Source: Mobula hypostoma (lineage: Eukaryota). From it: a DNA stretch of 64,000 nucleotides. Location: the NCBI RefSeq assembly GCF_963921235.1, contig NC_086108.1, positions 69,380,001-69,444,000 on the forward strand, written 5' to 3'. Positions 5,730-57,796 of the stretch are shown here, one piece after another. Position 1 is the first letter of the stretch, and each line of letters begins with the position of its first letter. Under the pieces are notes generated by a model, which saw only the letters and a list, made by a program, of their open reading frames with translations, did not search any database and was not told the origin of the DNA. The translations under genes and the position numbers were made by a program.

Positions 5730-5978
5730 TTAAAAAAATAATGTGAGATTAAAATAAGACATAAGCTGCAATAATCCTCACAATTCATTCTTTTCCAAGT
5801 TCACAACCATTTTTCTTTGGGCTGATCAGAACAGGCAAGACAGAGACGTCACCCCAAGTCACCACTGTCAGTTTGTAGTGAGTATAAGAATGAACTCTTT
5901 CCTTTGTACAGTTGCTTTCCAGGAAGTGCTGTTCAAATTTTATCAGCCATTTATAGGGCAAAGAGTTTTTATATAATG

Positions 5979-6837
5979 TGTTACGAGAATACACATAAAA
6001 TTAAGATGTTTGCTGGCCTGGGCTAGCATCAGTGGCATCAGCAGTTGGTCTGCCACCTGCCCTCAGGGGAAGGAGAGATAAGGAACAATGGAGCAGCGTC
6101 TGGAGATGTGTAATGAAGGGATGTGGGAGGAAGAGCTGTCTGGAGCGGCTCCCCCCTTTGAAGCCTGAACTGTTTGAAGTGATGGACAGGCGATACCCCA
6201 GCAGGGGGATAAAAAGGGACAGGTTCGCTAAGACAGACACACACGCCACCCGAGGTAACGAGACCCTGGAAGCGGTGCGCTTCTCACGAGTGGGTGAGAA
6301 GTCCCAGACAACGACAAGGGTGGAAAGGTACGATCAGCGGGAACCCGGTGTGTGTCCGCCCTTGCCTGGGTGCCGGGTTCACTGCAGAGGATCGACCGCA
6401 TCTGGAGGAGGGGTCACAGTCGGTGACCTCAGGTGACATCACCAAGGACCCGCCCAAATGCTGTTTGTGAGCCATCTCGCTGGTCTGTGAGTGAAGCTGT
6501 GCTGAATGATGAGTTGTTCCTATTCTATGTCTCTCTTCCCCACCTTGTCCATCGCCATGACAACGATTACTGCGAACTGAACTACTAAACTGGACTGAAC
6601 TTTGAGTCATTTTGAAATTGGTCATTTACCCCTAGACAACGATAGAGCTTGATTGATGCTGTTATCTTAATTCTGTGCACATGTGTGTTTATCATCACTG
6701 AACTGTTGCATTTATTATCCTTTCGATTACTGTGTTGCTTGTTTCTGTAATAAAACTTTCTTAGTTCTAGTACTCCAGACTCCAACTGAGTGATCCATTT
6801 CTGCTGGTTTGGCAACCCAGTTACGGGGTACGTAACA
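5979..6837 (+). repeat. 5' LTR
   Basis: TG...CA ends with 7-bp terminal inverted repeat; AATAAA at 6749-6754; repeated at 9875-10733 (offset 3896). Confidence 0.97.
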
Positions 6838-6841
6838 TAAG

Positions 6842-6860
6842 TGGGGTTCTCGTCCGCGAT
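6842..6860 (+). promoter_or_regulatory. Primer binding site, tRNA-Pro-like (imperfect)
   Basis: TGGGGTTCTCGTCCGCGATTTTGAAC versus the tRNA-Pro 3' complement TGGGGGCTCGTCCGGGATTTGAAC; starts 4 nt after the LTR. Confidence 0.7.
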
Positions 6861-6936
6861 TTTGAACGCTAAATTTGGGACGGAGTAAATTGATTGGGTT
6901 AAAATTCCCGAAAGAAAGAAAAGACAAACAGCAGAA

Positions 6937-9702
6937 ATGGAGGTTGAGGAATTTATAAAGGCGCCGACCTTGGAGGCATTAGAGGATGCCAGGAAATCGG
7001 AATTGATAGCTGTGGCAAAACGGGTGAATCTTGCTAAGGTGAAGTCGACAATGAGGAGAGAGGAGATACACAGAGCTATTGTAGAGCACTATGTATCTAA
7101 AGGTGTGTTTCCCCAAGGTGAGCTGGGGGAGGTGTCTGTTGAAAAACCTGCTGGAGACGCAGTACAGGTACAGCTTGAAAAACTGAGACTCGAGCACGAG
7201 TTCCGGGTACGGCAGTTAGAACACGAAGAGAAAGAGAGGGACAGACAGATGGAGAGAGAGGAGAAACAGAGGGAAAGGGAATTTGAGCTGGAGAAGTTAA
7301 AGATAAGGGCCGAGCAGGGGCTCGTGCCGAACCAAGGTGGAGGGTTCCGGGCGACCCAGGAGGTTAGGCTGGTTCCCCCATTTGACGATACCGATGTGGA
7401 TCGGTACTTTCTCCACTTCGAAAAAGTAGCTATAAGTCAGGACTGGCCGAGGGATAAGTGGGTTGTCTTACTTCAGAGTGTACTGAAAGGGAAAGCCCAA
7501 CAAGCTTACTTCGCTTTATCCGCGGAAGATGCCCAGAAGTATGAGGTGGTGAAGGAGGCCATCCTCAGGATTTATGAGTTGGTCCCGGAGGCATACCGGC
7601 AGAGGTTCCGGAATGCGAGGAAGCGGTGGGACCGCACGTATTTGGAGTTTGCTCGTGAGATGCAGACATATTGTGAGCGTTGGTGCGCCTCGAAGGGGGT
7701 AGAGGGGGATTATGACAGACTGCTACAGCTGATCCTGATTGAGCAGTTTAAAGGTTGTGTCCCTGAGGGTATGAGACCCTACCTCGATGAGAAAGAGGCA
7801 GCCACGTTAGCCGCAACTGCTAAGTTAGCGGATGAGTATGCGTTGACGCATAAAATGAAGTTTGCCCCGAGTAAAGGCTACCAGAAGGGTAGTCAGGACG
7901 GCGGGGAGAGTCCGCCGGAAAAGTCAGAAAGTAAGCCGGGGACTAGTGAAAAGGATAAGGTAGACCGGGAGCAGCCTGGTAGGAAGTCTCCTGGGGTCGT
8001 CTGTTATAATTGTGGGAAAGTCGGACACTTTGCGTCCAGGTGCTTTGCCCCAAGGAAGGAGACGGGGAAAGGAAAAGCGGAAATTTTGAATGGCTGTATC
8101 GAGCTGTTAAGCGAACCGCTAGGGAAGGACAGGTCTGAAAAAGTCCAGGAAGGGCGCGAGAGGTTTATCTCGGCCGGACTGGTGTCAGTGAAGGAGAGGT
8201 TAAAACCAGTTCCAGTGCGGATCTGGAGAGACACGGGAGCGTGTCAGTCACTAATACTGAAGAGTGTATTAGAGTTTAGCTCAGAGACCCAGACTGGGGA
8301 GGTAGAGGTCAAAGGTGTTGGGGAAGGGACAGAGTCAGTCCCTTTGCACCAGATACATTTACAGAGCAACCTGGTCTCTGGACTAGTCACGATCGGGGTG
8401 AGGTCCGAATTACCGATGAAAGACGTGGAAGTCTTGCTCGGTAATGACATCGCCGGAGGAATCGTGTTCCCAGTCGTGAGATTGACGGGTCAGCCTGCCA
8501 GCATGGAGGCCCCGCCCGCGATGGTGAATTTGGCTGAAACATTTCTGCCAACCTTGTATGAGACAGGGTGTAGTGAGATAAGAGGTAGTGAGGGAGCTGG
8601 GACGGACGTAGCAGTAGCCAGGAAAGAATTTGTGCAGACGCAGGAGCGAGACGAGGGGCTGATGGTTTTGGCAGAGACCGCTCTCTCTGACACAGCCTTG
8701 ACAAGCTATTGTGCGGATGAGGAAGTGCTAAGGAAGAAAGGGAAATCAAGTACAGCATCCGCAGATGAGGAGTGGGGGGTGGTGCAAAAGAGTTACGGGG
8801 ATGAGGTTTTTAACATGGCCCACGAGGTACCCCCCGGTGGACATTTTGCGGTGCTGGGGGAAACAGTTGGTGGAATCATGAAAGAGATTTACCGGCTGCC
8901 CAGGGGGAAAAATGTTATTGATCATGACCGACGCGAACTGAGACGGTCACCGGCTTTTGATATGCTAACAAACCTAGTCGGTGTTAGCGTGGAAATCAAT
9001 GAAGCTAGGGGCCCCTTGATAAGAGGAAAAAACCATTTTGAAAAGATTAGGATGGGATCGGTCAGATGGGAGAAGGCTATTGTTTTGGCCAGGTCTACTG
9101 ATAAGGTCTCTCCCTTAATCCCCGAAGGAGTAATTAAACGACTCGCACCCATGTGTTTGATTGTCCCGAGGAAATGCAAAGAACTGGGACGTTGGGTTAT
9201 GTCTGTTAAAATAGGGCAGCCAAGTAAACAACACCCATATTTTTCGAGTAATTCAGTGACTAAAGGGCTGATGAACACAGAGGTGTGTATTGGCAATTTA
9301 ACACGGCTGTCTGAAGCCAGCTTGATAGTGAACCTTGGAAAAAATGAATTCGGCCACACGAATGTCACTTACCTGGGAATTGTGGTGACACAGGGGCAGC
9401 TGGCAGTGATACAAGCTACAGTGCAGGCTATCGCTGACCTCCCAACCCCGACAGACAAGAGGGCCCTCAGAAGGCTTTTGGAGATGGTGGGGTACTGCAG
9501 GAAGTTTTGCAATAACTCTGCGGTCAATACCCGTCCCCCTCCTACTAAGCCCTTGCGAGGGAAAATTGAGTCGGAATGGGACGACCCTTGTTGTTGTGGT
9601 CCGGGACAAAACCAAATGAGAGGTTACATTGGTCGCAATTCATCAGTGTTTTTGGCCACTATGAAGTTTGCTGAGTTGGAGCCTGGTCTAAGGGATTATT
9701 AA
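6937..9702 (+). CDS. Gag (coiled coil, SCAN-like capsid, CCHC knuckle)-aspartic protease polyprotein fused to degenerate IN/RT remnants, 921 aa
   Basis: YELVPEAYRQRFR...LILIEQF (SCAN-like), CYNCGKVGHFASRC (8002), RDTGA...LLGND protease, AHEVPPGGH (IN HH only), RT YxDD position reads CIGN (9286-9297). Confidence 0.9.
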   Translation: MEVEEFIKAPTLEALEDARKSELIAVAKRVNLAKVKSTMRREEIHRAIVEHYVSKGVFPQGELGEVSVEKPAGDAVQVQLEKLRLEHEFRVRQLEHEEKERDRQMEREEKQREREFELEKLKIRAEQGLVPNQGGGFRATQEVRLVPPFDDTDVDRYFLHFEKVAISQDWPRDKWVVLLQSVLKGKAQQAYFALSAEDAQKYEVVKEAILRIYELVPEAYRQRFRNARKRWDRTYLEFAREMQTYCERWCASKGVEGDYDRLLQLILIEQFKGCVPEGMRPYLDEKEAATLAATAKLADEYALTHKMKFAPSKGYQKGSQDGGESPPEKSESKPGTSEKDKVDREQPGRKSPGVVCYNCGKVGHFASRCFAPRKETGKGKAEILNGCIELLSEPLGKDRSEKVQEGRERFISAGLVSVKERLKPVPVRIWRDTGACQSLILKSVLEFSSETQTGEVEVKGVGEGTESVPLHQIHLQSNLVSGLVTIGVRSELPMKDVEVLLGNDIAGGIVFPVVRLTGQPASMEAPPAMVNLAETFLPTLYETGCSEIRGSEGAGTDVAVARKEFVQTQERDEGLMVLAETALSDTALTSYCADEEVLRKKGKSSTASADEEWGVVQKSYGDEVFNMAHEVPPGGHFAVLGETVGGIMKEIYRLPRGKNVIDHDRRELRRSPAFDMLTNLVGVSVEINEARGPLIRGKNHFEKIRMGSVRWEKAIVLARSTDKVSPLIPEGVIKRLAPMCLIVPRKCKELGRWVMSVKIGQPSKQHPYFSSNSVTKGLMNTEVCIGNLTRLSEASLIVNLGKNEFGHTNVTYLGIVVTQGQLAVIQATVQAIADLPTPTDKRALRRLLEMVGYCRKFCNNSAVNTRPPPTKPLRGKIESEWDDPCCCGPGQNQMRGYIGRNSSVFLATMKFAELEPGLRDY

Positions 9703-9862
9703 TAACACGTGTAAAAGGAACAGAAAATGTGATGACTGTCTGTCAAGGTGTTGACAATTTCAAATTCTCTGTATTAGCTAAATAACTGTTAAAGATGTAT
9801 ATTGTGTATGTATCAGATAATGTAGTCATGTTTGTAATTTTTACCTCCCGGTAAAAATCCTT

Positions 9863-9874
9863 AAAGGGGGGAAG
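9863..9874 (+). promoter_or_regulatory. Polypurine tract
   Basis: AAAGGGGGGAAG directly abutting the 3' LTR. Confidence 0.9.
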
Positions 9875-10733
9875 TGTTACGAGAATACACATAAAATTAA
9901 GATGTTTGCTGGCCTGGGCTAGCATCAGTGGCATCAGCAGTTGGTCTGCCACCTGCCCTCAGGGGAAGGAGAGATAAGGAACAATGGAGCAGCGTCTGGA
10001 GATGTGTAATGAAGGGATGTGGGAGGAAGAGCTGTCTGGAGCGGCTCCCCCCTTTGAAGCCTGAACTGTTTGAAGTGATGGACAGGCGATACCCCAGCAG
10101 GGGGATAAAAAGGGACAGGTTCGCTAAGACAGACACACACGCCACCCGAGGTAACGAGACCCTGGAAGCGGTGCGCTTCTCACGAGTGGGTGAGAAGTCC
10201 CAGACAACGACAAGGGTGGAAAGGTACGATCAGCGGGAACCCGGTGTGTGTCCGCCCTTGCCTGGGTGCCGGGTTCACTGCAGAGGATCGACCGCATCTG
10301 GAGGAGGGGTCACAGTCGGTGACCTCAGGTGACATCACCAAGGACCCGCCCAAATGCTGTTTGTGAGCCATCTCGCTGGTCTGTGAGTGAAGCTGTGCTG
10401 AATGATGAGTTGTTCCTATTCTATGTCTCTCTTCCCCACCTTGTCCATCGCCATGACAACGATTACTGCGAACTGAACTACTAAACTGGACTGAACTTTG
10501 AGTCATTTTGAAATTGGTCATTTACCCCTAGACAACGATAGAGCTTGATTGATGCTGTTATCTTAATTCTGTGCACATGTGTGTTTATCATCACTGAACT
10601 GTTGCATTTATTATCCTTTCGATTACTGTGTTGCTTGTTTCTGTAATAAAACTTTCTTAGTTCTAGTACTCCAGACTCCAACTGAGTGATCCATTTCTGC
10701 TGGTTTGGCAACCCAGTTACGGGGTACGTAACA
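9875..10733 (+). repeat. 3' LTR
   Basis: No difference from the 5' LTR seen by eye; ORF-track translations inside the two LTRs are identical. Confidence 0.97.
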
Positions 10734-10869
10734 TAAGGAACTGAAATTTACAATCTTCTGATTTGACTAAAAAGGTTCTACTACACAGATGTTTTCAAAA
10801 TGAGTGTAAATTTTGATGAAAGAACTTGCAGTGTCACAGATCCTTGGCTTTATATACAATAGAAGATGA

Positions 10870-24307: not shown

Positions 24308-27300
24308 TCTTTCAACATCATACAACCTCCTCCAGGTGACCCAGCCGGGGCTGATCAGACCCCAGCTTGTGTCCAGATGGCTAGCTACTTATGACTCCAT
24401 GGCTCCCCTCTTTTGAGCCACAGCCATCTTGGGGCCCTCTCTGCCGCATCGGTGGTACTGCGGATGGCTCTCCTCTTCCTCTCTCCCTCGATGCCCAAAA
24501 TGCTGAAGGCTCTAACTAAAGAACGGGCTACGAATCCCCTACAACCAACCTCCACTGGGAGACACCTCGCTCCCCATCCAGCCTGCTGACAGTTGCTGAC
24601 CAGTCCTGCGTACTTGGAGAGCTTCCTTTCAAAGGCCTCTTCCAAGCTATCTTCCCATGGGACTGTCAGCTCCAGCAGCACCACTTGCAGACTCAGACAC
24701 TAGGACAATGTCTGGTCGCAGGGTGGTGGCTGCGATATGGTTGGGGAGCTTCCGCTGCCCTTCGAGGTCCACCAACAGTTGCCAGTCCCTTGCAGAGGTC
24801 AGGATGTCTGCAGATGTTCTTTTGGTGGGTATTGGCTGCTCCCCAGCTCTGACAAAGGCAATGGTCTGCTTGGAGGGTCGGGACCGCTTCGCCCACTCAA
24901 CTCCTGCACTGACGGCTTCAGCGATGGTCTTCAGGACCCGATCATGCCTCCACCTGTACCGTCCCTCACCAAGTGCCCTTGCACAGCCGCTGAGGATGTG
25001 CTCCAGGGTTCCTCGCTTGGAGCACAGTGGGCACGCAGATGACTCTGCCTTGCCCCATGTGTGCAGGTTTGATGGGCTTGCAAGCACATCGTACACTGCC
25101 TGGATGAGAAATTGGATGCGGTGTAGTTCGGCTTTCCAAAGATCAGCCCAGGTCACTTTCCTTTCAACTACATTCTCCCATCTTGTCCAAGTTCCCTGTT
25201 GCTTCATTCCCACCGCCTTGCAGGCTCTCATCTCCTCTACTACTGCTCTCACCTCCTCCTGAACTAGACGACGCCTTTCCTTCCCTCTGGTGCCCATTTG
25301 GGGAGTTGGAAAGGATCCTAGCCCAGCTCGGCCTTGTGTGACCACTCCCACCAGCCTCCTGTGACGCAGCCTCGCCTCTGCCTCCTGAACAGCTTCCTCT
25401 GCCCTCCACTTCCTGCCAGTACTTACTTGGATCCCTGCTCTAGCCACCTTCGGGTCACTTGAGTCCCTATACTGTAGCACTTCTCTGGCTCTTGTTACCT
25501 TGAATTCTTCCTCCAAGGATTTGAAGGGCAGTTGCAGTTTGTTGTGGTGTCCATAGAGTGCGATGCTGCTCAGGCTCTTTGGCAGCCCCAGCCATCTCCT
25601 GAGGTGGTTGCTAACCCTCCTCTCTAAGGTTTCGACTGTCGAGATCTGAACTGCATCGACGAGGAGGGGCCACAGGATTCTGGGAAGAATGCCATGCTGA
25701 TATACCCAGGCTTTAAACTTCCCAGGTAGGCCAGACTTGTCCACAGATTTCAGCCAGCCATCCAACTCGGTGCAGGTTGCCTGAATGGATGTTGTGTCCC
25801 TTAAAGAGATGTTAAAAACTTTGCTTAAGCTCTTGACTGGCTTTTCTGTGATGGTTGGGATGGCTGTGCCTGCGATGCTGAACCGGAACTTGTTCTCCAC
25901 TTTCCCTTTCCTCAGCACCTTTGATCTTGATTTGGCAGGTTTGAAACGCATCCGGGCCCACTCCACCAGCTTTTCGAGCCCTTGCAGAATCCTCCGGCAG
26001 CCTGGGACTGATTCTGTGGTGACTGTGAGGTCATCCATGAATGCCCCGATAGGTGGTTGCCGTTGAGTGGAATTCATTCTGGGCCCTCTGCGCTCTGGTT
26101 CAGCAGACTTAGTGAGCATGTTCATGGCTAGGGAGAAGTGTCAGTGAGATAGTGCACCCTGTGATGATACCGATCTCCACCTTGTGCCAGGTTGACGTAA
26201 TTGCTCCTGAAGAGACCTTCATCCTGAAGTTGCTGTACTAATCAGCGATAAGGTCTCTGATTCTGCTGGGGACCTGATATTTGGTCAGTGTGAGCTGCAC
26301 CAGCTTGTGTGGAATGGAGCCATATGCATTTGCCAGGTCGAGCCACAACACTGACAGGTTGCCCTTGTTCTCTCTGGCCTCCCTGATGAGCTGTGTCACC
26401 ACACCGATGTGCTCCAGACAGCCCGGCATCCCTGAAATGCCACCCTTCTGGACTGATGTATCAATATAGGTGTTCTTTGCTAGGTAGGTGCACAGCCGGT
26501 TAGAAACTGCACTGAAGAAGATCTTCGCCTCAACACACAGCAGGGAGATGATGTGAAACTGATCTATCTGGGTGGCATTTTTCTCCTTCGGGATCCACAC
26601 CCCTTCAGCCACTCTCCACTGTTCTGGGATCTTCCCCCTTCTCCAGAAGATTCTCAGGATCTTCCACAGACGCAGCAGGAGTTTGGGGCAATTCTTGTAC
26701 ACTTTGTACGAGGTGTTGCTTGGTCCTGGAGCCGAGCTTGCCCTTGCTTTGCAGACAACCTCTCTGAGTTCCATTAGTTGCAGCTCTGACATGTCGAACT
26801 GCACATCCGGTTCAGGTGGGTCTATTAGGATGTCGCACTCTCCCAACTCCTGATCTCTTTCAGGTTCATTATATATCTTCTTCAGATGTTGGTCTATGTC
26901 TTCCTGCGAACAGGTCAGTTTCCCACTGCGCTTCTCCCCCAGCAACTCCTTGGTGAACTTGAAGGGGTTAGCGATAAAGGCAGCACGTTTTCGGGCCCTT
27001 TCACGACGCTGCCTCCAATGCCACTCTGCCCAGCGGAGGACCCTGATCTTCTTTCGTAGTATGCACATCAGCTGGGCCAAGCCAATGCGCTCCTCTTCTC
27101 CTGCCTCCTTGTATTGGGACTTCAGCGCTTTCATCTCCTGCCTGATGTTGTGGATCCTCAATGCTCTTCAGTTCTTCGAGTAAGATGTTTTGGAGCCTTC
27201 CTTCTCCTCTTCTCCGAACCGTTCAGCTGTGATACTGACAATAATTGTTGTCATGGCTTGCAGCTTCCTATCAACCCCTCCCTTCGCCGTTGCCTCCAGA

Positions 27301-27977
27301 ATTTGGTTAACATCTTCATCAAGCTGCTTCCACAGTGAAGTCATGTTAGCTGCAGGCCATTTGATCCGCCTCCTGTTAGACTTCATGTTAGAGGGATTCG
27401 TTTGCAACACTTGGAGGTTCCAGGCACTCTGGGGTGACTCCGGGCCTGGCCCCTCCTTCGTCTCACCAGGTTGGACACCTGCGCGTTGTGCTGCTCCTGC
27501 TCCCGCCAAACACTTCATCCTTGCTTGGTGGATCTTCAAGCCGCGATCGTTCTTGCAGATTTTGCCACATGCACACTGCTTCCTCATCGTCGTTTGTTCA
27601 TTGCCTGGGTCTGATGTCGTTGTGTCCATCCGACTGGGGTGCTCATCCTCCCCGCCTCTCAGGCACCCCTGGGGGTATCTTTTCCTTAGATTCACTGTAG
27701 CTTTTGTGGGGGTCCTCCTCTCAGAGGACACAGATTGGGTTGCCAGCCCGTTCTGCCCTGGTTGCCGTCTCACCGGGCTGTCACTGTCTCTCCAGTCGTC
27801 ACCACTCTTTTCGCGGTTGTCACCCAGTCTTTCCTGGTTGTCACTGATTAACTCAGGGTGTAAGCTGTGTACATACATCTACTGATGCTTCTGGACACAT
27901 CTTCAGTGACGTTCCTGGAATCATCGGGTGTTTCGGGTCTTTCAACATCATACAGCCTCCTCCAAGTGACCCAGCCG
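24308..27977 (-). mobile_element. HERO-like (RLE-type) non-LTR retrotransposon, near full length but disrupted
   Basis: N-terminal CxCGKxCKNxRGLKIHQARMKC finger, RT (WLDLANAYGSIPH, FMDD), CCHC (CPLC...LEHILSGC), RHD, RPDIV, ELTVPWE, RKLSKY, PVEVG; ORF split into 27168-27878, 26238-27161, 24647-26125 and 24385-24684; 40-bp terminal direct repeats. Confidence 0.85.
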
Positions 27978-51350: not shown

Positions 51351-52710
51351 CAAAGGTTCAAAGGTCCAATTTTGTTAATATTGCTAATTTAACCTATTTT
51401 ATGGATTGCTTCCGGCACTTTCTCAGCTGTTGCGATGCTGGCCTGTCCATTATCACTTTCAGCATTGGCTCTTCACAAGATGGTGTTAAGGTACCACAAG
51501 TTGCTCAGACAAAATCACTGTGTCTTTCTGTCAAGTCATCTAATGGACGATTGCTTCATAGAATGGTTGTCACACAGAAATACCAGTCACCGTGGTTTAC
51601 AATTCATCTCTATCAATGCTTGGTGAAATCCTTTCCAGTTGGATCATAACTAAGAAAAGACGCTGCTGATTTTCTCAATACAGGGGCAGAATGGATATCC
51701 TGAGACATCCACAATCAAAGTAAAATATACAAAAGGGGTTATAGTATTTAAAATCTCTCTCTATGCCATAAAGGCCAAATTAGAAAACATTTGTAAGTGG
51801 GCTGGGAGTGGAATGAGTGGACCAGGACACGCAAAATTTATGGTTCCATTTATTAGTGTGATCGTATCAACCACCCAGCACTAATGACACTGTTTATTAG
51901 CACAGCTAGCATGAGTTCAGATTTACTGATTAAATCCAGCCTGGCTCTCTTGTGGCGGGAGGCATTTTCACAAGCCTCAGGGACTTGTAGGAAGACTTGA
52001 CTGATCATGGGTAAAGAGAGGTCCCAGGGTCTTTGCAGTTCAATACTGGAGATCAGAGGGAAGAGGATGAGTAACCCTTTACCTAAAGAGAGACAAGTCA
52101 CCAAACCTCCTAGGCAAGCAAGAGCACAGGCAGGAGACAATTCAAGGAGTCACTCCCCCAGAAAGCGGATGCAGGGCAGAACAAGTCTCATGATCTCAGA
52201 AGTGGGGTTAAGGTCACGTGGAACATCTCCCACACATTACATCGCAGGCCTCAGACATCGGTCTCACCTACCAACAATCTCTATCAGGGTTCGGACCAAA
52301 TTTTCTATGCCTCACCAAACCATCACATATTTACCACAACAGCAGGCAGACATCATCATCTGCTGGCACACTTCCCTCTCTCCTGCAAAACAGTACGCTA
52401 AGTAGCAAAAGGTAACAGCCATCTGGCAGGGAACAAGCTAACAGCCCACCTTCCTCGAGGGCAAACCTATCGGCCATTGCAGAGTTACAGCTAGCATTGA
52501 AAATGATGCTGTGCTTTTTCGTCCTCCTTCATCTCACTTTTCATCCCCACCTTATTCCACCATCTGCAGATGCTGGGAGCCTGCATTTTTAATAGCCACT
52601 CTCCCCTCTCCATAGCACTGGCCCCCACCCGATGTCTTTGTCCCTTTAGGTCACTTTGGCAGCAGTGCACTCTAGGGTAGCTTGGGGAGGAATGATAAAA
52701 AAAAAATATT

Positions 52711-55700
52711 TTGGTTAAACAAGCAATAAAAGTTAAACAAGGGGGTGGGAATCAAATTAAAGCGGCTAGGTGTGAGGAGGTTAGTTCACAACAGAGGGAT
52801 GGGAACCAGTGCAGAGAGACAGAGGGGTGTAAAGTGAGCGTAGAAGCAAAAAGTACAAAGGGGAAAAGTAAAAGTGGCAGGCCGACAAATCCAGGGCAAG
52901 CATTAAAAAGGGCTAAGAGAGTTGTAAAAGAGTGCCTGAAGGCTTTATGTGTCAATGCAAGGAGCATTCGTAATAAGGTGGATGAATTGAAAGTGCAGAT
53001 TGTTATTAATGATTATGATATAGTTGGGATCACAGAGACATGGCTCCAGGGTGACCAGGGATGGGAGCTCAACGTTCAGGGATATTCAATATTCAGGAGG
53101 GATAGACACGAAGGAAGGGGAGGTGGGGTGGCGTTGCTGGTTAAAAAAGAGATTAACGCAATAGAAAGGAAGGACATAAGCCGGGAAGATGTGGAATCGA
53201 TATGGGTAGAGCTGCGTAACACTAAGGGGCAGAAGACGCTGGTGGGAGTTGTGTACAGGCCACCTAACAGTAGTAGTGAGGTCGGAGATGGTATTAAACA
53301 GGAAATTAGAAATGTGTGCAATAAAGGAACAGCAGTTATAATGGGTGACTTCAATCTACATGTAGACTGGGTGAACCAAATTGGTAAAGGTGCTGAGGAA
53401 GAGGATTTCTTGGAATGTATGCGGGATGGTTTTTTGAACCAACATGTCGAGGAACCGACTAGAGAGCAGGCTATTCTGGACTGGGTTTTGAGCAATGAGG
53501 AAGGGTTAATTAGCGATCTTGTCGTGAGAGGCCCCTTGGGTAAGAGTGACCATAATATGGTGGAATTCTTCATTAACATGGAGAGTGACGTAGTTAATTC
53601 AGAAACAAAGGTTCTGAACTTAAAGAGGGGTAACTTTGAAGGTATGAGACATGAATTAGCTAAGCTAGACTGGCAAATGACACTTCAAGGATTGACGGTG
53701 GATATGCAATGGCAGGCATTTAAAGGTTGCATGGATGAACTACAACAATTGTTCATCCCAGTTTGGCAAAAGAATAAATCAAGGAAGGTAGTGCACCCGT
53801 GGCTGACAAGAGAAATTAGGGATAGTATCAATTCCAAAGAAGTAGCATACAAATTAGCCAGAGAAAGTGGCTCACCTGAGGACTGGGAGAAATTCAGAGT
53901 TCAGCAGAGGAGGACAAAGGGCTTAATTAGGAAGGGGAAAACAGATTATGAGAGAAAACTGGCGGGGAACATAAAAACAGACTGTAAAAGCTTTTATAGA
54001 TATGTAAAAAGGAAAAGACTGATAAAGACAAATGTAGGTCCCCTGCAAACAGAAACAGGTGAATTGATTATGGGGAGCAAGGACATGGCAGACCAATTGA
54101 ATAATTACTTTGGTTCTGTCTTCACTAAGGAGGACATAAATAATCTTCCAGAAATAGTAAGGGACAGAGGGTCCAGTGAGATGGAGGAACTGAGCGAAAT
54201 ACATGTTAGTAGGGAAGTGGTGTTAGGTAAATTGAAGGGATTGAAGGCAGATAAATCCCCAGGGCCAGATGGTCTGCATCCCAGAGTGCTTAAGGAAGTG
54301 GCCCAAGAAATAGTGGATGCATTAGTGATAATTTTTCAAAACTCGTTAGATTCTGGACTAGTTCCTGAGGATTGGAGGGTGGCTAATGTAACCCCACTTT
54401 TTAAAAAAGGAGGGAGAGAGAAACCGGGGAATTATAGGCCGGTTAGCCTAACGTCGGTGGTGGGGAAACTGCTGGAGTCAGTTATCAAGGATGTGATAAC
54501 AGCACATTTGGAAAGCGGTGAAATGATCGGACAAAGTCAGCATGGATTTGTGAAAGGAAAATCATGTCTGACGAATCTCATAGAATTTTTTGAGGATGTA
54601 ACTAGTAGAGTGGATAGGGGAGAACCAGTGGATGTGGTATATTTGGATTTTCAAAAGGCTTTTGACAAGGTCCCACATAGGAGATTAGTGTGCAAACTTA
54701 AAGCACACGGTATTGGGGGTAAGGTATTGGTGTGGGTGGAGAATTGGTTAGCAGACAGGAAGCAAAGAGTGGGAATAAACGGGACCTTTTCAGAATGGCA
54801 GGCAGTGACTAGTGGGGTACCGCAAGGCTCAGTGCTGGGACCCCAGTTGTTTACAATATATATTAATGACTTGGATGAGGGAATTAAATGCAGCATCTCC
54901 AAGTTTGCGGATGACACGAAGCTGGGTGGCAGTGTTAGCAGTGAGGAGGATGCTAAGAGGATGCAGGGTGACTTGGATAGGTTGGGTGAGTGGGCAAACT
55001 CATGGCAGATGCAATTTAATGTGGATAAATGTGAAGTTATCCACTTTGGTGGCAAAAATAGGAAAACAGATTATTATCTGAATGGTGGCCGATTAGGAAA
55101 AGGGGAGGTGCAACGAGACCTGGGTGTCATTATACACCAGTCATTGAAAGTGGGCATGCAGGTACAGCAGGCGGTGAAAAAGGCGAACGGTATGCTGGCA
55201 TTTATAGCGAGAGGATTCGAGTACAGGAGCAGGGAGGTACTACTGCAGTTGTACAAGGCCTTGGTGAGACCACACCTGGAGTATTGTGTGCAGTTTTGGT
55301 CCCCTAATCTGAGGAAAGACATCTTTGCCATAGAGGGAGTACAAAGAAGGTTCACCAGATTGATTCCTGGGATGGCAGGTCTTTCATATGAAGAAAGACT
55401 GGATGAACTGGGCTTGTACTCGTTGGAATTTAGAAGATTGAGGGGGGATCTGATTGAAACGTATAAGATCCTAAAGGGATTGGACAGGCTAGATGCAGGA
55501 AGATTGTTCCCGATGTTGGGGAGGTCTAGAACGAGGGGTCACAGTTTGAGGATAGAGGGGAAGCCTTTTAGGACCGAGGTTAGGAAAAACTTCTTCACAC
55601 AGAGAGTGGTGAATCTGTGGAATTCTCTGCCACAGCAAACTGTTGAGGCCAGTTCATTAGCTATGTTTAAAAGGAAGTTAGATATGGCCCTTGTGGCTAC

Positions 55701-55737
55701 AGGGGTCAGGGGGTATGGAGGGAAGGCTGGGTTCTGA
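52711..55737 (+). CDS. CR1-clade LINE ORF2 (APE endonuclease + reverse transcriptase), uninterrupted
   Basis: NARSIRNK, GITETW, MGDFN, LDWV, SDH (APE); YLDFQKAFDKV, GVPQGSVLGP, FADD (RT); no stops over 1008 codons; true start uncertain. Confidence 0.93.
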   Translation: MVKQAIKVKQGGGNQIKAARCEEVSSQQRDGNQCRETEGCKVSVEAKSTKGKSKSGRPTNPGQALKRAKRVVKECLKALCVNARSIRNKVDELKVQIVINDYDIVGITETWLQGDQGWELNVQGYSIFRRDRHEGRGGGVALLVKKEINAIERKDISREDVESIWVELRNTKGQKTLVGVVYRPPNSSSEVGDGIKQEIRNVCNKGTAVIMGDFNLHVDWVNQIGKGAEEEDFLECMRDGFLNQHVEEPTREQAILDWVLSNEEGLISDLVVRGPLGKSDHNMVEFFINMESDVVNSETKVLNLKRGNFEGMRHELAKLDWQMTLQGLTVDMQWQAFKGCMDELQQLFIPVWQKNKSRKVVHPWLTREIRDSINSKEVAYKLARESGSPEDWEKFRVQQRRTKGLIRKGKTDYERKLAGNIKTDCKSFYRYVKRKRLIKTNVGPLQTETGELIMGSKDMADQLNNYFGSVFTKEDINNLPEIVRDRGSSEMEELSEIHVSREVVLGKLKGLKADKSPGPDGLHPRVLKEVAQEIVDALVIIFQNSLDSGLVPEDWRVANVTPLFKKGGREKPGNYRPVSLTSVVGKLLESVIKDVITAHLESGEMIGQSQHGFVKGKSCLTNLIEFFEDVTSRVDRGEPVDVVYLDFQKAFDKVPHRRLVCKLKAHGIGGKVLVWVENWLADRKQRVGINGTFSEWQAVTSGVPQGSVLGPQLFTIYINDLDEGIKCSISKFADDTKLGGSVSSEEDAKRMQGDLDRLGEWANSWQMQFNVDKCEVIHFGGKNRKTDYYLNGGRLGKGEVQRDLGVIIHQSLKVGMQVQQAVKKANGMLAFIARGFEYRSREVLLQLYKALVRPHLEYCVQFWSPNLRKDIFAIEGVQRRFTRLIPGMAGLSYEERLDELGLYSLEFRRLRGDLIETYKILKGLDRLDAGRLFPMLGRSRTRGHSLRIEGKPFRTEVRKNFFTQRVVNLWNSLPQQTVEASSLAMFKRKLDMALVATGVRGYGGKAGF

Positions 55738-56937: not shown

Positions 56938-57796
56938 TGTTACGTACCCAGTAATTGGGTTGCCAAACCAGCAGAAATGGATCACTCAGTTGGAGTCTGG
57001 ATTACTAGAACTAAGGAAGTTTTATTAAAGAAACAAGCAACACAGTACTCTAATTAAAAGGATAATGAATGCAACAGTTCAGCAATGATAAACATACATG
57101 TACACAGAATTAAGATAGCAGGATCAATCAAGCTCTATCGTTGTCTAGGGGCAAATGACCAGTTTCAAAGTGACACAAAGTTCAGTTCAATTTAGTTCAG
57201 TTGGCAGTAATCGTTGCCATGGCGATGGACAGTGGGGGGGGGAGGAGAGAGAGCAAAACGAATGAATATTCAACACAGCTTCCACACAGAGCTTCGCAGT
57301 CAGCTGTCGGGCGAGTCCTTTGTGATGTCATCTGAGGTCACCGACCGTGACCCCTCAGTTTCCAGATACGATCGTTTCCCTGCGCTGAACCTGGCACCCA
57401 GGCAAGGGTGGACACACACCAGGTTCCCGCCGATCGTGCCTTTCCACCCTGTGCATTTATGGCTTGATCCCGCGATCAGCCGTCCAAAAGCTTCCCACCG
57501 ACTTGTGAGAGGCGCACCGCTTCCAGGGTCTCGTTACCTCGGGTGTCGTGTGTGTCCTGCCTTAGCGAACCTGTCCCTTTATATCCCCCTGCTGGGGTAT
57601 CGTCTGTCCATCACTTCAAACAGTTCAGGGTTCAAAGGGGGAGCCGCTCTTGACAGCTCTCCTTCCCCTTCATTACACATCTCCAAATGCTGCTCCATTG
57701 TTTTCCTTATCTCTCTCTCTCCTGAAGACAGGTGGCAGACCAACTGCTGATTCCACAGGACAGCTAACATCTTAATCTATGTGTATTCCTGTCACA
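56938..57796 (-). mobile_element. Solo LTR of the same family as 5979-10733 (diverged), with 4-bp TSD
   Basis: Reverse complement aligns by eye over its whole length with the 859-bp LTR; TGAC flanks both sides (56934-56937, 57797-57800). Confidence 0.93.

Follow-up and report, generated by a model that had tools for sequence, protein, structure and literature searches.

A young Gmr1-like retroelement of Mobula hypostoma that probably borrows its enzymes and keeps dead pol sequence in frame

The stretch of Mobula hypostoma DNA analysed here ('the window') is 64,000 nucleotides long (NCBI RefSeq assembly GCF_963921235.1, contig NC_086108.1, forward-strand positions 69,380,001 to 69,444,000). 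At window positions 5979–10733 it carries a long terminal repeat (LTR) retrotransposon which, judged by its sequence, is a defective member of the Gmr1-like gypsy group. We regard it as probable (probability about 0.65) that the element is a young, high-copy, non-autonomous parasite, which makes its own capsid, borrows reverse transcriptase (RT) and integrase, and retains its dead pol as in-frame filler. The capsid is under purifying selection inside the defective lineage (omega about 0.2), while amino-acid change in the pol-derived tail is neutral (omega 0.81–0.95). Neutral residues, length changes in triplets only and depleted stops together indicate that the reading frame of the tail was selected, and not its protein sequence.

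Intact relatives of the element were found by a search with the integrase core, in which 4 of 150 scored matches lay within open frames of 1551–1580 aa. Their LTRs are 95–97% identical to those in the window, and they have the same primer-binding site (PBS) and polypurine tract (PPT) as well as 4-bp target-site duplications. A Gmr1-like partner with matching LTR ends and PBS had been anticipated in a preliminary description of this DNA, and the PPT matches in addition. The partner used for comparison, L051, features one open reading frame (ORF) of 1548 aa with Pfam matches to SCAN, CCHC, H2C2 (aa 686–742), rve (763–858), RVT_1 (1175–1332) and RNase H (1396–1527). Its integrase upstream of RT, single Gag-Pol ORF and SCAN capsid support the earlier Gmr1-like assignment. 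The integrase DNA was at least 99% alike in 10 of 40 scored helper matches, corresponding to about 10 young copies. Set against 846 copies of the newest deletion junction of the defective form, this yields a ratio of young defective to young helper copies of about 85:1. The element is likely to be non-autonomous, with RT and integrase borrowed from this low-copy intact partner.

The two LTRs of the window element, 859 bp each, show 0 differences, and the 921-aa ORF between them is free of stops; together with PBS and PPT, these features are as first described. Pfam searches with the 921-aa protein returned SCAN and zf-CCHC only (PF02023 and PF00098), in line with the SCAN-like capsid and CCHC knuckle recognised earlier, and left the protease region without a match. 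The protease was assigned from its DTG motif, which is kept in 95 of 100 sibling copies, and from 90% identity to the protease region of the partner. Neither the whole protein nor pieces of the tail matched an RT, integrase or RNase H family, so an intact RT or integrase had not been misread. Alignment to L051 led to the same result and bore out the proposed mosaic of pol remnants, in the order integrase then RT with an RNase H end out of frame. The remnants are colinear with the partner: HH of the integrase is kept, CC and the whole DDE core are deleted, RT is reduced to QHPY, the CIGN stretch at the YIDD position and the thumb, and RNase H is nearly gone, with TRVKGTENV and DCLSR past the stop in other frames. 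In all, the ORF retains ~1.2 kb of pol remnants, or about 400 codons, in frame. An intact integrase DDE core, the RT motif YxDD and RNase H, by which an autonomous element would be recognised, are absent from the window element.

The family is large and young. A search with the tail DNA gave 2589 candidates, of which 40 were scored and found to be 99–100% identical; exact-pattern searches gave the 846 copies with the newest deletion junction and 1804 copies of a tail motif. Hundreds of matching copies rule out a single dead copy, and, being dispersed and combined with identical LTRs, they also exclude a domesticated gag/SCAN gene. Three sets were sampled for comparison: the 20 closest copies, 40 older copies taken by protein similarity from 124 matches, and 40 copies chosen by the 24-bp junction pattern only, taken one after another from the first 60 listed for contig C1. 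Within a copy, the two LTRs differ by a median of 0.23% in the young sets (19 and 40 copies), compared to 2.0% in 37 older copies, and a 4-bp target-site duplication is present in 52 of the 59 young copies with both LTRs resolved. These values are in agreement with the recently mobile, multi-copy lineage that had been proposed. Of the 40 pattern-chosen copies, 23 have an ORF that is uninterrupted as far as the native stop.

The ten closest database proteins are gene models of Mobula hypostoma with 77–98% identity, followed by proteins of other rays and by polyproteins of 1500–1600 aa with SCAN, integrase, RT and RNase H. Contigs from three other organisms (X9, X13 and X18) bridge the 258-nt deletion junction, while the 384-nt and the 54-nt junction are each bridged by a single contig, from X9 and X13, respectively. 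The collapsed form hence predates this species. Family gene models are already part of the public annotation, and some are fused to names of host genes. Two of them, P0002 and P0009, are named for a MACC1 isoform and a phosphatidylserine decarboxylase isoform; these are probably annotation fusions or cases of exonisation. Tandem arrangements were also observed, namely six defective copies ~4.0 kb apart (G000:C50:12552267-12572755), a helper pair with a common LTR (L054/L055) and a young defective pair (L161).

Selection was assessed in 100 defective copies by scoring variants against the window copy, with CpG changes excluded and private variants serving as the neutral control. In Gag aa 131–372, shared variants comprise 46 synonymous and 31 nonsynonymous changes (omega 0.22), compared to 46 and 130 among private variants (omega 0.90; p = 5e-7). 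The protease gave 20/23 shared (omega 0.44) and 36/66 private changes (omega 0.70; p = 0.26), and the tail 58/137 (omega 0.81) and 90/241 (omega 0.91; p = 0.55). Shared and private variants were likewise similar in Gag aa 1–80. The unbiased set of 40 pattern-chosen copies agrees (Gag p = 0.021, tail p = 0.85). Since Gag is shared with the helper, as set out below, the variants also present in helpers (46 of the 77 inherited Gag variants) were removed before the capsid was tested. The remaining defective-only capsid variants, 13 synonymous and 9 nonsynonymous, still deviate from neutrality (omega 0.23, p = 7e-4). No significant selection was detected among the defective-only variants of the nucleocapsid (2 synonymous, 5 nonsynonymous) or the protease (6 and 10, p = 0.41). 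Along the branch that leads to the defective copies (the stem), the tail accumulated 50 synonymous and 125 nonsynonymous changes and 0 stops (omega 0.95). The same codons on the helper branch show 21 and 14 changes (omega 0.25), which differs from the defective stem (p = 7e-4). The homologous codons of the helper and the element's own capsid thereby act as internal controls for the drift of the tail. Selection on the ORF, as previously suggested, is supported for the capsid and for the open frame, but not for the protease or for the residues of the tail.

The open frame itself is the second line of evidence. Between the end of the protease and codon 908, L051 and the window copy differ by 13 length changes, all of them multiples of three (in order −36, −27, −21, −12, −15, +3, −888, −18, +3, −384, −54, +3 and −258 nt), and the 888-nt loss consists of two in-frame pieces in the protein alignment. 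Among 51 private ORF indels outside the coil, 16 preserve the frame (Fisher p = 5e-6 against the 13 of 13), and shared indels 3' of the stop are non-triplet. The sole frameshift fixed in the lineage lies 12 codons upstream of the stop. Among the 175 stem changes about 6.7 stops are expected and 0 were observed (p about 0.001); within the family there is 1 shared stop versus 7.5 expected, a figure inflated by the choice of the older copies. A stop at codon 761 in 4 copies was considered as inherited and rejected, the carriers not being each other's nearest neighbours. Between older and young copies, 78 nt were lost from the tail. Open frames are commonly taken as a sign of protein function, whereas in this tail a frame of about 400 codons is kept open and its residues drift freely.

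The different parts of the element differ in age. Synonymous divergence (dS) from L051 is 0.05–0.07 in Gag, 0.29 in the protease, 0.44–0.83 in the three longer tail regions and 0.16 in the 19-codon RNase H piece. The LTR of the window copy has a median distance of 2.2% to 7 young helpers and 1.7% to 25 young siblings, compared to 6.2% to 25 older defective copies. In the tree of the integrase remnant, all 15 helpers form one clade versus 31 defective copies. In the Gag tree, young helpers fall among young defective copies, and once mid-age helpers are included, helper and defective copies interleave at several age levels. The approximately unbiased (AU) test rejects helper monophyly in Gag (p = 0.015) and, for the tail, a clade of young helpers plus young defective copies (p = 3e-10). 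For the protease, the tree speaks against an exchange between young helpers and young defective copies, although such an exchange is compatible with the AU test (p = 0.075). These data support the conclusion that Gag and LTRs belong to a pool shared with the helper through recombination, and that the tail is old. A flow of Gag from parasite to helper was hinted at by the first tree, but the mid-age helpers gave weakly supported interleaving at multiple levels. Owing to the exchange, the element combines a young shell with an old tail, and Gag and LTRs look intact partly for this reason. The preliminary description, in which Gag looked intact, overlooked this exchange of Gag and LTRs with the helper. 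PMC6894440 and PMC11302176 present template switching between co-packaged RNAs as an established route of exchange. Here, co-packaging with helper Pol followed by template switching would be the corresponding route.

Several points weigh against the interpretation given above. Support in the Gag tree is modest, and only 2 of 12 label changes over 58 rows are forced by strong branches. Helper haplotypes outside the sample could hold the capsid variants counted as defective-only. The 40 older copies, chosen by protein similarity, are biased to open frames (7 private stops versus 13 expected), and the unbiased 40 alone are weak for stops (0 shared versus 1.9 expected). Large deletions were counted as net changes, and the three +3 changes could run in either direction, leaving 10 of 10 triplets if they are omitted. 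The element was flagged for being open in the first place, so that the p-values are somewhat inflated. A frame-broken side clade exists as well. Two database proteins with the same altered C-terminus were the clue to a 2-nt frameshift at codon 818, present in 26 copies (versus 1804 intact), which leads to a stop about 90 codons early. Of these 26 copies 20 were sampled, and 18 were complete enough to be placed, together with L071, in a tree of 19. Eleven of the 19 form one older clade (10 of them with support 96), whose members lie at separate loci, several with target-site duplications, and lack most of the thumb; in some, codon 631 or 693 is the site of an earlier frameshift as well. The remaining 8 are scattered in the tree, which marks the site as a slippage hotspot too. 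Since the frame-broken clade replicated, the open frame is an advantage with a graded effect and not strictly required, and the element can do without the C-terminal remnant. None of the sampled copies of the young subfamily descends from this clade.

If the element is a parasite as proposed, it would be transcribed from its helper-like LTR, produce Gag or Gag-protease, be packaged with helper Pol and be primed by tRNA-Pro. Gag and Pol share one ORF in Gmr elements, and the native stop therefore lies close to the 3' LTR, at a distance of 172 nt in the window copy and 120 nt in the helper. Survival or packaging of the RNA probably requires that translation end near this stop; if it ended directly behind the protease, the 3' untranslated region, about 0.95 kb long, would grow to about 2.1 kb. 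A putative escape from nonsense-mediated decay (NMD) is favoured over translation-coupled packaging in cis, and both may coexist. For unspliced RNA of Rous sarcoma virus (RSV), PMC2925335 reports in the relevant passages that early stops destabilise the RNA via Upf1, and do so less when they are nearer to the natural stop. This gradient fits the tolerance near the end of the ORF and the shrinkage of the tail by in-frame deletion only. With hundreds of natural copies, some having early stops, NMD and packaging can be addressed by sequencing alone.

A related explanation accepts the same parasite and helper, but ascribes the frame to an effect of the protein in cis, the long polyprotein of Gag, protease and filler, irrespective of its sequence, steering its own RNA into particles or co-assembling with helper Gag-Pol. 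The selection on the capsid in the defective lineage, a sign that the RNA of this lineage profits from the Gag it encodes, points in this direction, as does the 85-fold excess over young helpers. Reviews are likewise cited for a cis action of the fusion protein of the mouse intracisternal A-particle (IAP) 1Δ1 (excerpts of PMC6466679 and PMC7411935). If Gag alone acted in cis, however, 400 further codons would be superfluous, and the tail is steadily shrinking and neutral in sequence, which makes this the less likely, though a serious, alternative. The open frame might also be the by-product of a lucky master lineage without selection on the ORF, Gag being conserved only through refreshing by the helper. 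The exchange of Gag and LTRs is real, more than half of the inherited Gag variants occur in helpers too and the frame-broken clade did replicate; but the helper cannot refresh the tail, which is still open after 13 of 13 triplet changes and 175 stem substitutions, and the defective-only capsid variants are still biased to synonymous changes, so that we consider this improbable. Still slightly less probable, and largely refuted, is a repurposed tail, in which, e.g., the RT thumb or the integrase N-terminus would bind helper Pol: the thumb is 66% identical to the helper and stem omega is slightly under 1 (0.71 in the thumb, 0.76 in the linker), but the thumb of the helper is nearly unchanged (2 synonymous, 0 nonsynonymous) compared to 34 replacements in the same codons on the defective stem, shared and private variants of the tail are alike (thumb omega 0.94), Pfam gave no match and the side clade spread without its last 100 residues, so that this earlier suggestion is not supported.

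A more far-reaching view, which we put forward tentatively and think doubtful at present, is that of a lasting two-part system across ray species. An abundant shell-maker and a rare enzyme-maker would share one capsid and LTR pool, the parasite would pass capsid alleles between helper lineages and the dead pol would be purely a translated spacer. If true, the family would be a natural experiment in which RNA surveillance, and not protein function, holds a reading frame open.

The PBS was compared in 127 copies. Of these, 79 have precisely the common mismatched form and 21 the exact complement of tRNA-Pro, and tRNA-Pro genes with a matching 3' end are present in L173. A mismatched PBS is found in the majority of helper and defective copies of every age, and for 7 of 11 copies with a perfect PBS the nearest neighbour is mismatched. 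A second tRNA matching the common form was sought, giving one pattern match with no tRNA gene called at the site. A similar pattern is known for mouse ETn/MusD and IAP, where escape from tRNA fragments has been proposed (passages of PMC7472051). As in those elements, the most frequent form of the PBS does not fully match the tRNA, and the perfect ones resemble scattered reversions; here, in contrast, the family is of the gypsy type, primed by tRNA-Pro and found in a cartilaginous fish, and helper and parasite both show the pattern.

The window copy lacks a matching target-site duplication, with AATG on the left and TAAG on the right. TAAG on the right occurs in 4 of the 59 young copies (the window copy, L132, L162 and L168), with the left 4-mers AATG, AGAG, ATAG and ATAG. 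These left 4-mers end in G in 4/4 and in AG in 3/4 cases, compared to 18/52 and 9/52 at normal sites. A polishing error is not supported, as contigs of the DNA runs X1–X3, which represent one sample, perhaps that of the assembly itself, give the same letters from 10712 on. We infer that the missing duplication is a variant of integration repair and not the mark of an old or rearranged insertion. Integrase would trim 4 nt, and the 4-nt flap would sometimes be ligated into the 4-nt gap when the join pairs.

The features of the element are listed in Table 1. The E/R/K repeat of Gag varies between 28 and 130 residues among near-identical young copies, and in helpers too; the window copy has the shortest form, and all 12 shared length changes of the repeat are in frame.

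Table 1 Features of the Gmr1-like element in the window
Feature	Position	Strand	Remarks
5' LTR	5979–6837	+	859 bp, TGTTACG...CGTAACA, same as 3' LTR; left flank AATG at 5975–5978
Spacer and PBS	6838–6860	+	4-nt TAAG, then tRNA-Pro-type PBS (6842–6860), common mismatched form
ORF	6937–9702	+	921 aa: Gag, protease, pol-derived putative filler
E/R/K-rich coiled-coil-like repeat in Gag	7177–7311 (approximate limits)	+	Length highly variable
SCAN-like capsid C-terminal domain	7585–7854	+	aa 217–306, PF02023 E=1.6e-12
CCHC zinc knuckle	7999–8043	+	aa 355–369, PF00098 E=4.4e-6
Aspartic protease region	8167–8496	+	DTG at 8230–8238; 90% aa identity to helper, dS 0.29
Linker and integrase N-terminal remnant	8527–8969	+	HH, no CC; ends at net 888-nt in-frame loss of integrase core
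Integrase-RT linker and RT start (QHPY) remnant	8970–9244	+	Ends at 384-nt in-frame loss of RT core
RT remnant	9245–9591	+	CIGN at YIDD position, 54-nt deletion, thumb; 66% aa identity to helper, dS 0.44
Short RNase H remnant	9597–9702	+	Follows in-frame deletion of 258 nt; frameshift over last 12 codons, ending in TAA TAA stop
3' untranslated stretch	9703–9874	+	Out-of-frame RNase H end, ~140 nt 98% identical to helper, PPT at 9863–9874
3' LTR	9875–10733	+	AATAAA at 10645
TAAG where target-site copy is expected	10734–10737	+	Matches the element's own LTR-PBS spacer

Other elements were observed elsewhere in the window. A solo LTR from an older subfamily of the family described here (56938–57796, minus strand) is about 81% identical to the helper LTR by BLAST and has a 4-bp target-site duplication. 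A stop-free frame of 1012 aa at 52699–55737 (plus strand) features endonuclease and RT domains (Pfam) and belongs to a young long interspersed nuclear element (LINE) ORF2, which we take to be of the CR1/L2 type. At 24647–27885 (minus strand), a broken non-LTR element with RT and zf-RVT traces across several frames is perhaps of the restriction-like endonuclease type.

The lifestyle proposed for the element is already known from IAP 1Δ1, RLG_Quinta and TR-GAG elements. In the literature searched, outside subscription journals and Repbase/Dfam, no account of this family or of frame-only selection on a pol remnant was found. The family adds an exchange of capsid and LTRs between autonomous and non-autonomous lineages, across several age classes, in a vertebrate. 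TR-GAGs are plant Copia or Gypsy LTR elements coding for Gag and protease, and they are not known to carry pol remnants. The window element resembles them in having Gag and protease without RT, RNase H and integrase, but differs from them in being an animal element with ~400 codons of pol in frame. The earlier comparison with TR-GAGs is therefore apt for the way of working, while the element is not strictly one of them, and IAP 1Δ1 and Quinta are closer working analogies. The term TR-GAG is discussed in a passage of PMC13570524.

Excerpts describe Gmr1-like elements as having a single Gag-Pol ORF (PMC11117352), integrase upstream of RT (PMC8220671) and a SCAN-related capsid (PMC8321522). The partner shares all three traits and the element keeps the order; unlike Gmr1-like elements, it has no catalytic integrase, RT or RNase H and outnumbers its intact partner. 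Mouse IAP 1Δ1 is, according to passages of PMC6466679 and PMC7411935, a non-autonomous element with a fusion ORF created by an in-frame deletion, which uses helper proteins in trans, outnumbers its helper in new insertions and for which translation of the fusion plays a role in cis. Non-autonomy, an in-frame fusion ORF after deletion and defective copies outnumbering the helper are common to both. IAP 1Δ1, however, is an endogenous retrovirus in which a single deletion removed 1.9 kb and which requires Gag in trans as well, whereas the window element belongs to the gypsy group, its capsid is intact and under selection, at least 10 in-frame deletions followed one another, and the tail has reached a dS of 0.4–0.8. 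In wheat, RLG_Quinta is described in parts of PMC11302176 as the Gag-only partner of RLG_Cereba, sharing LTR motifs, PBS and PPT with it and recombining around gag; Quinta is proposed to contribute Gag, and Sabrina and WHAM are similar. The element studied here is likewise a non-autonomous partner with shared LTR motifs, PBS and PPT and with gag recombination. In Quinta, Gag is strongly diverged from that of the helper and is accompanied by a domain of unknown origin, whereas here the Gag pool is shared and the extra sequence is dead pol.

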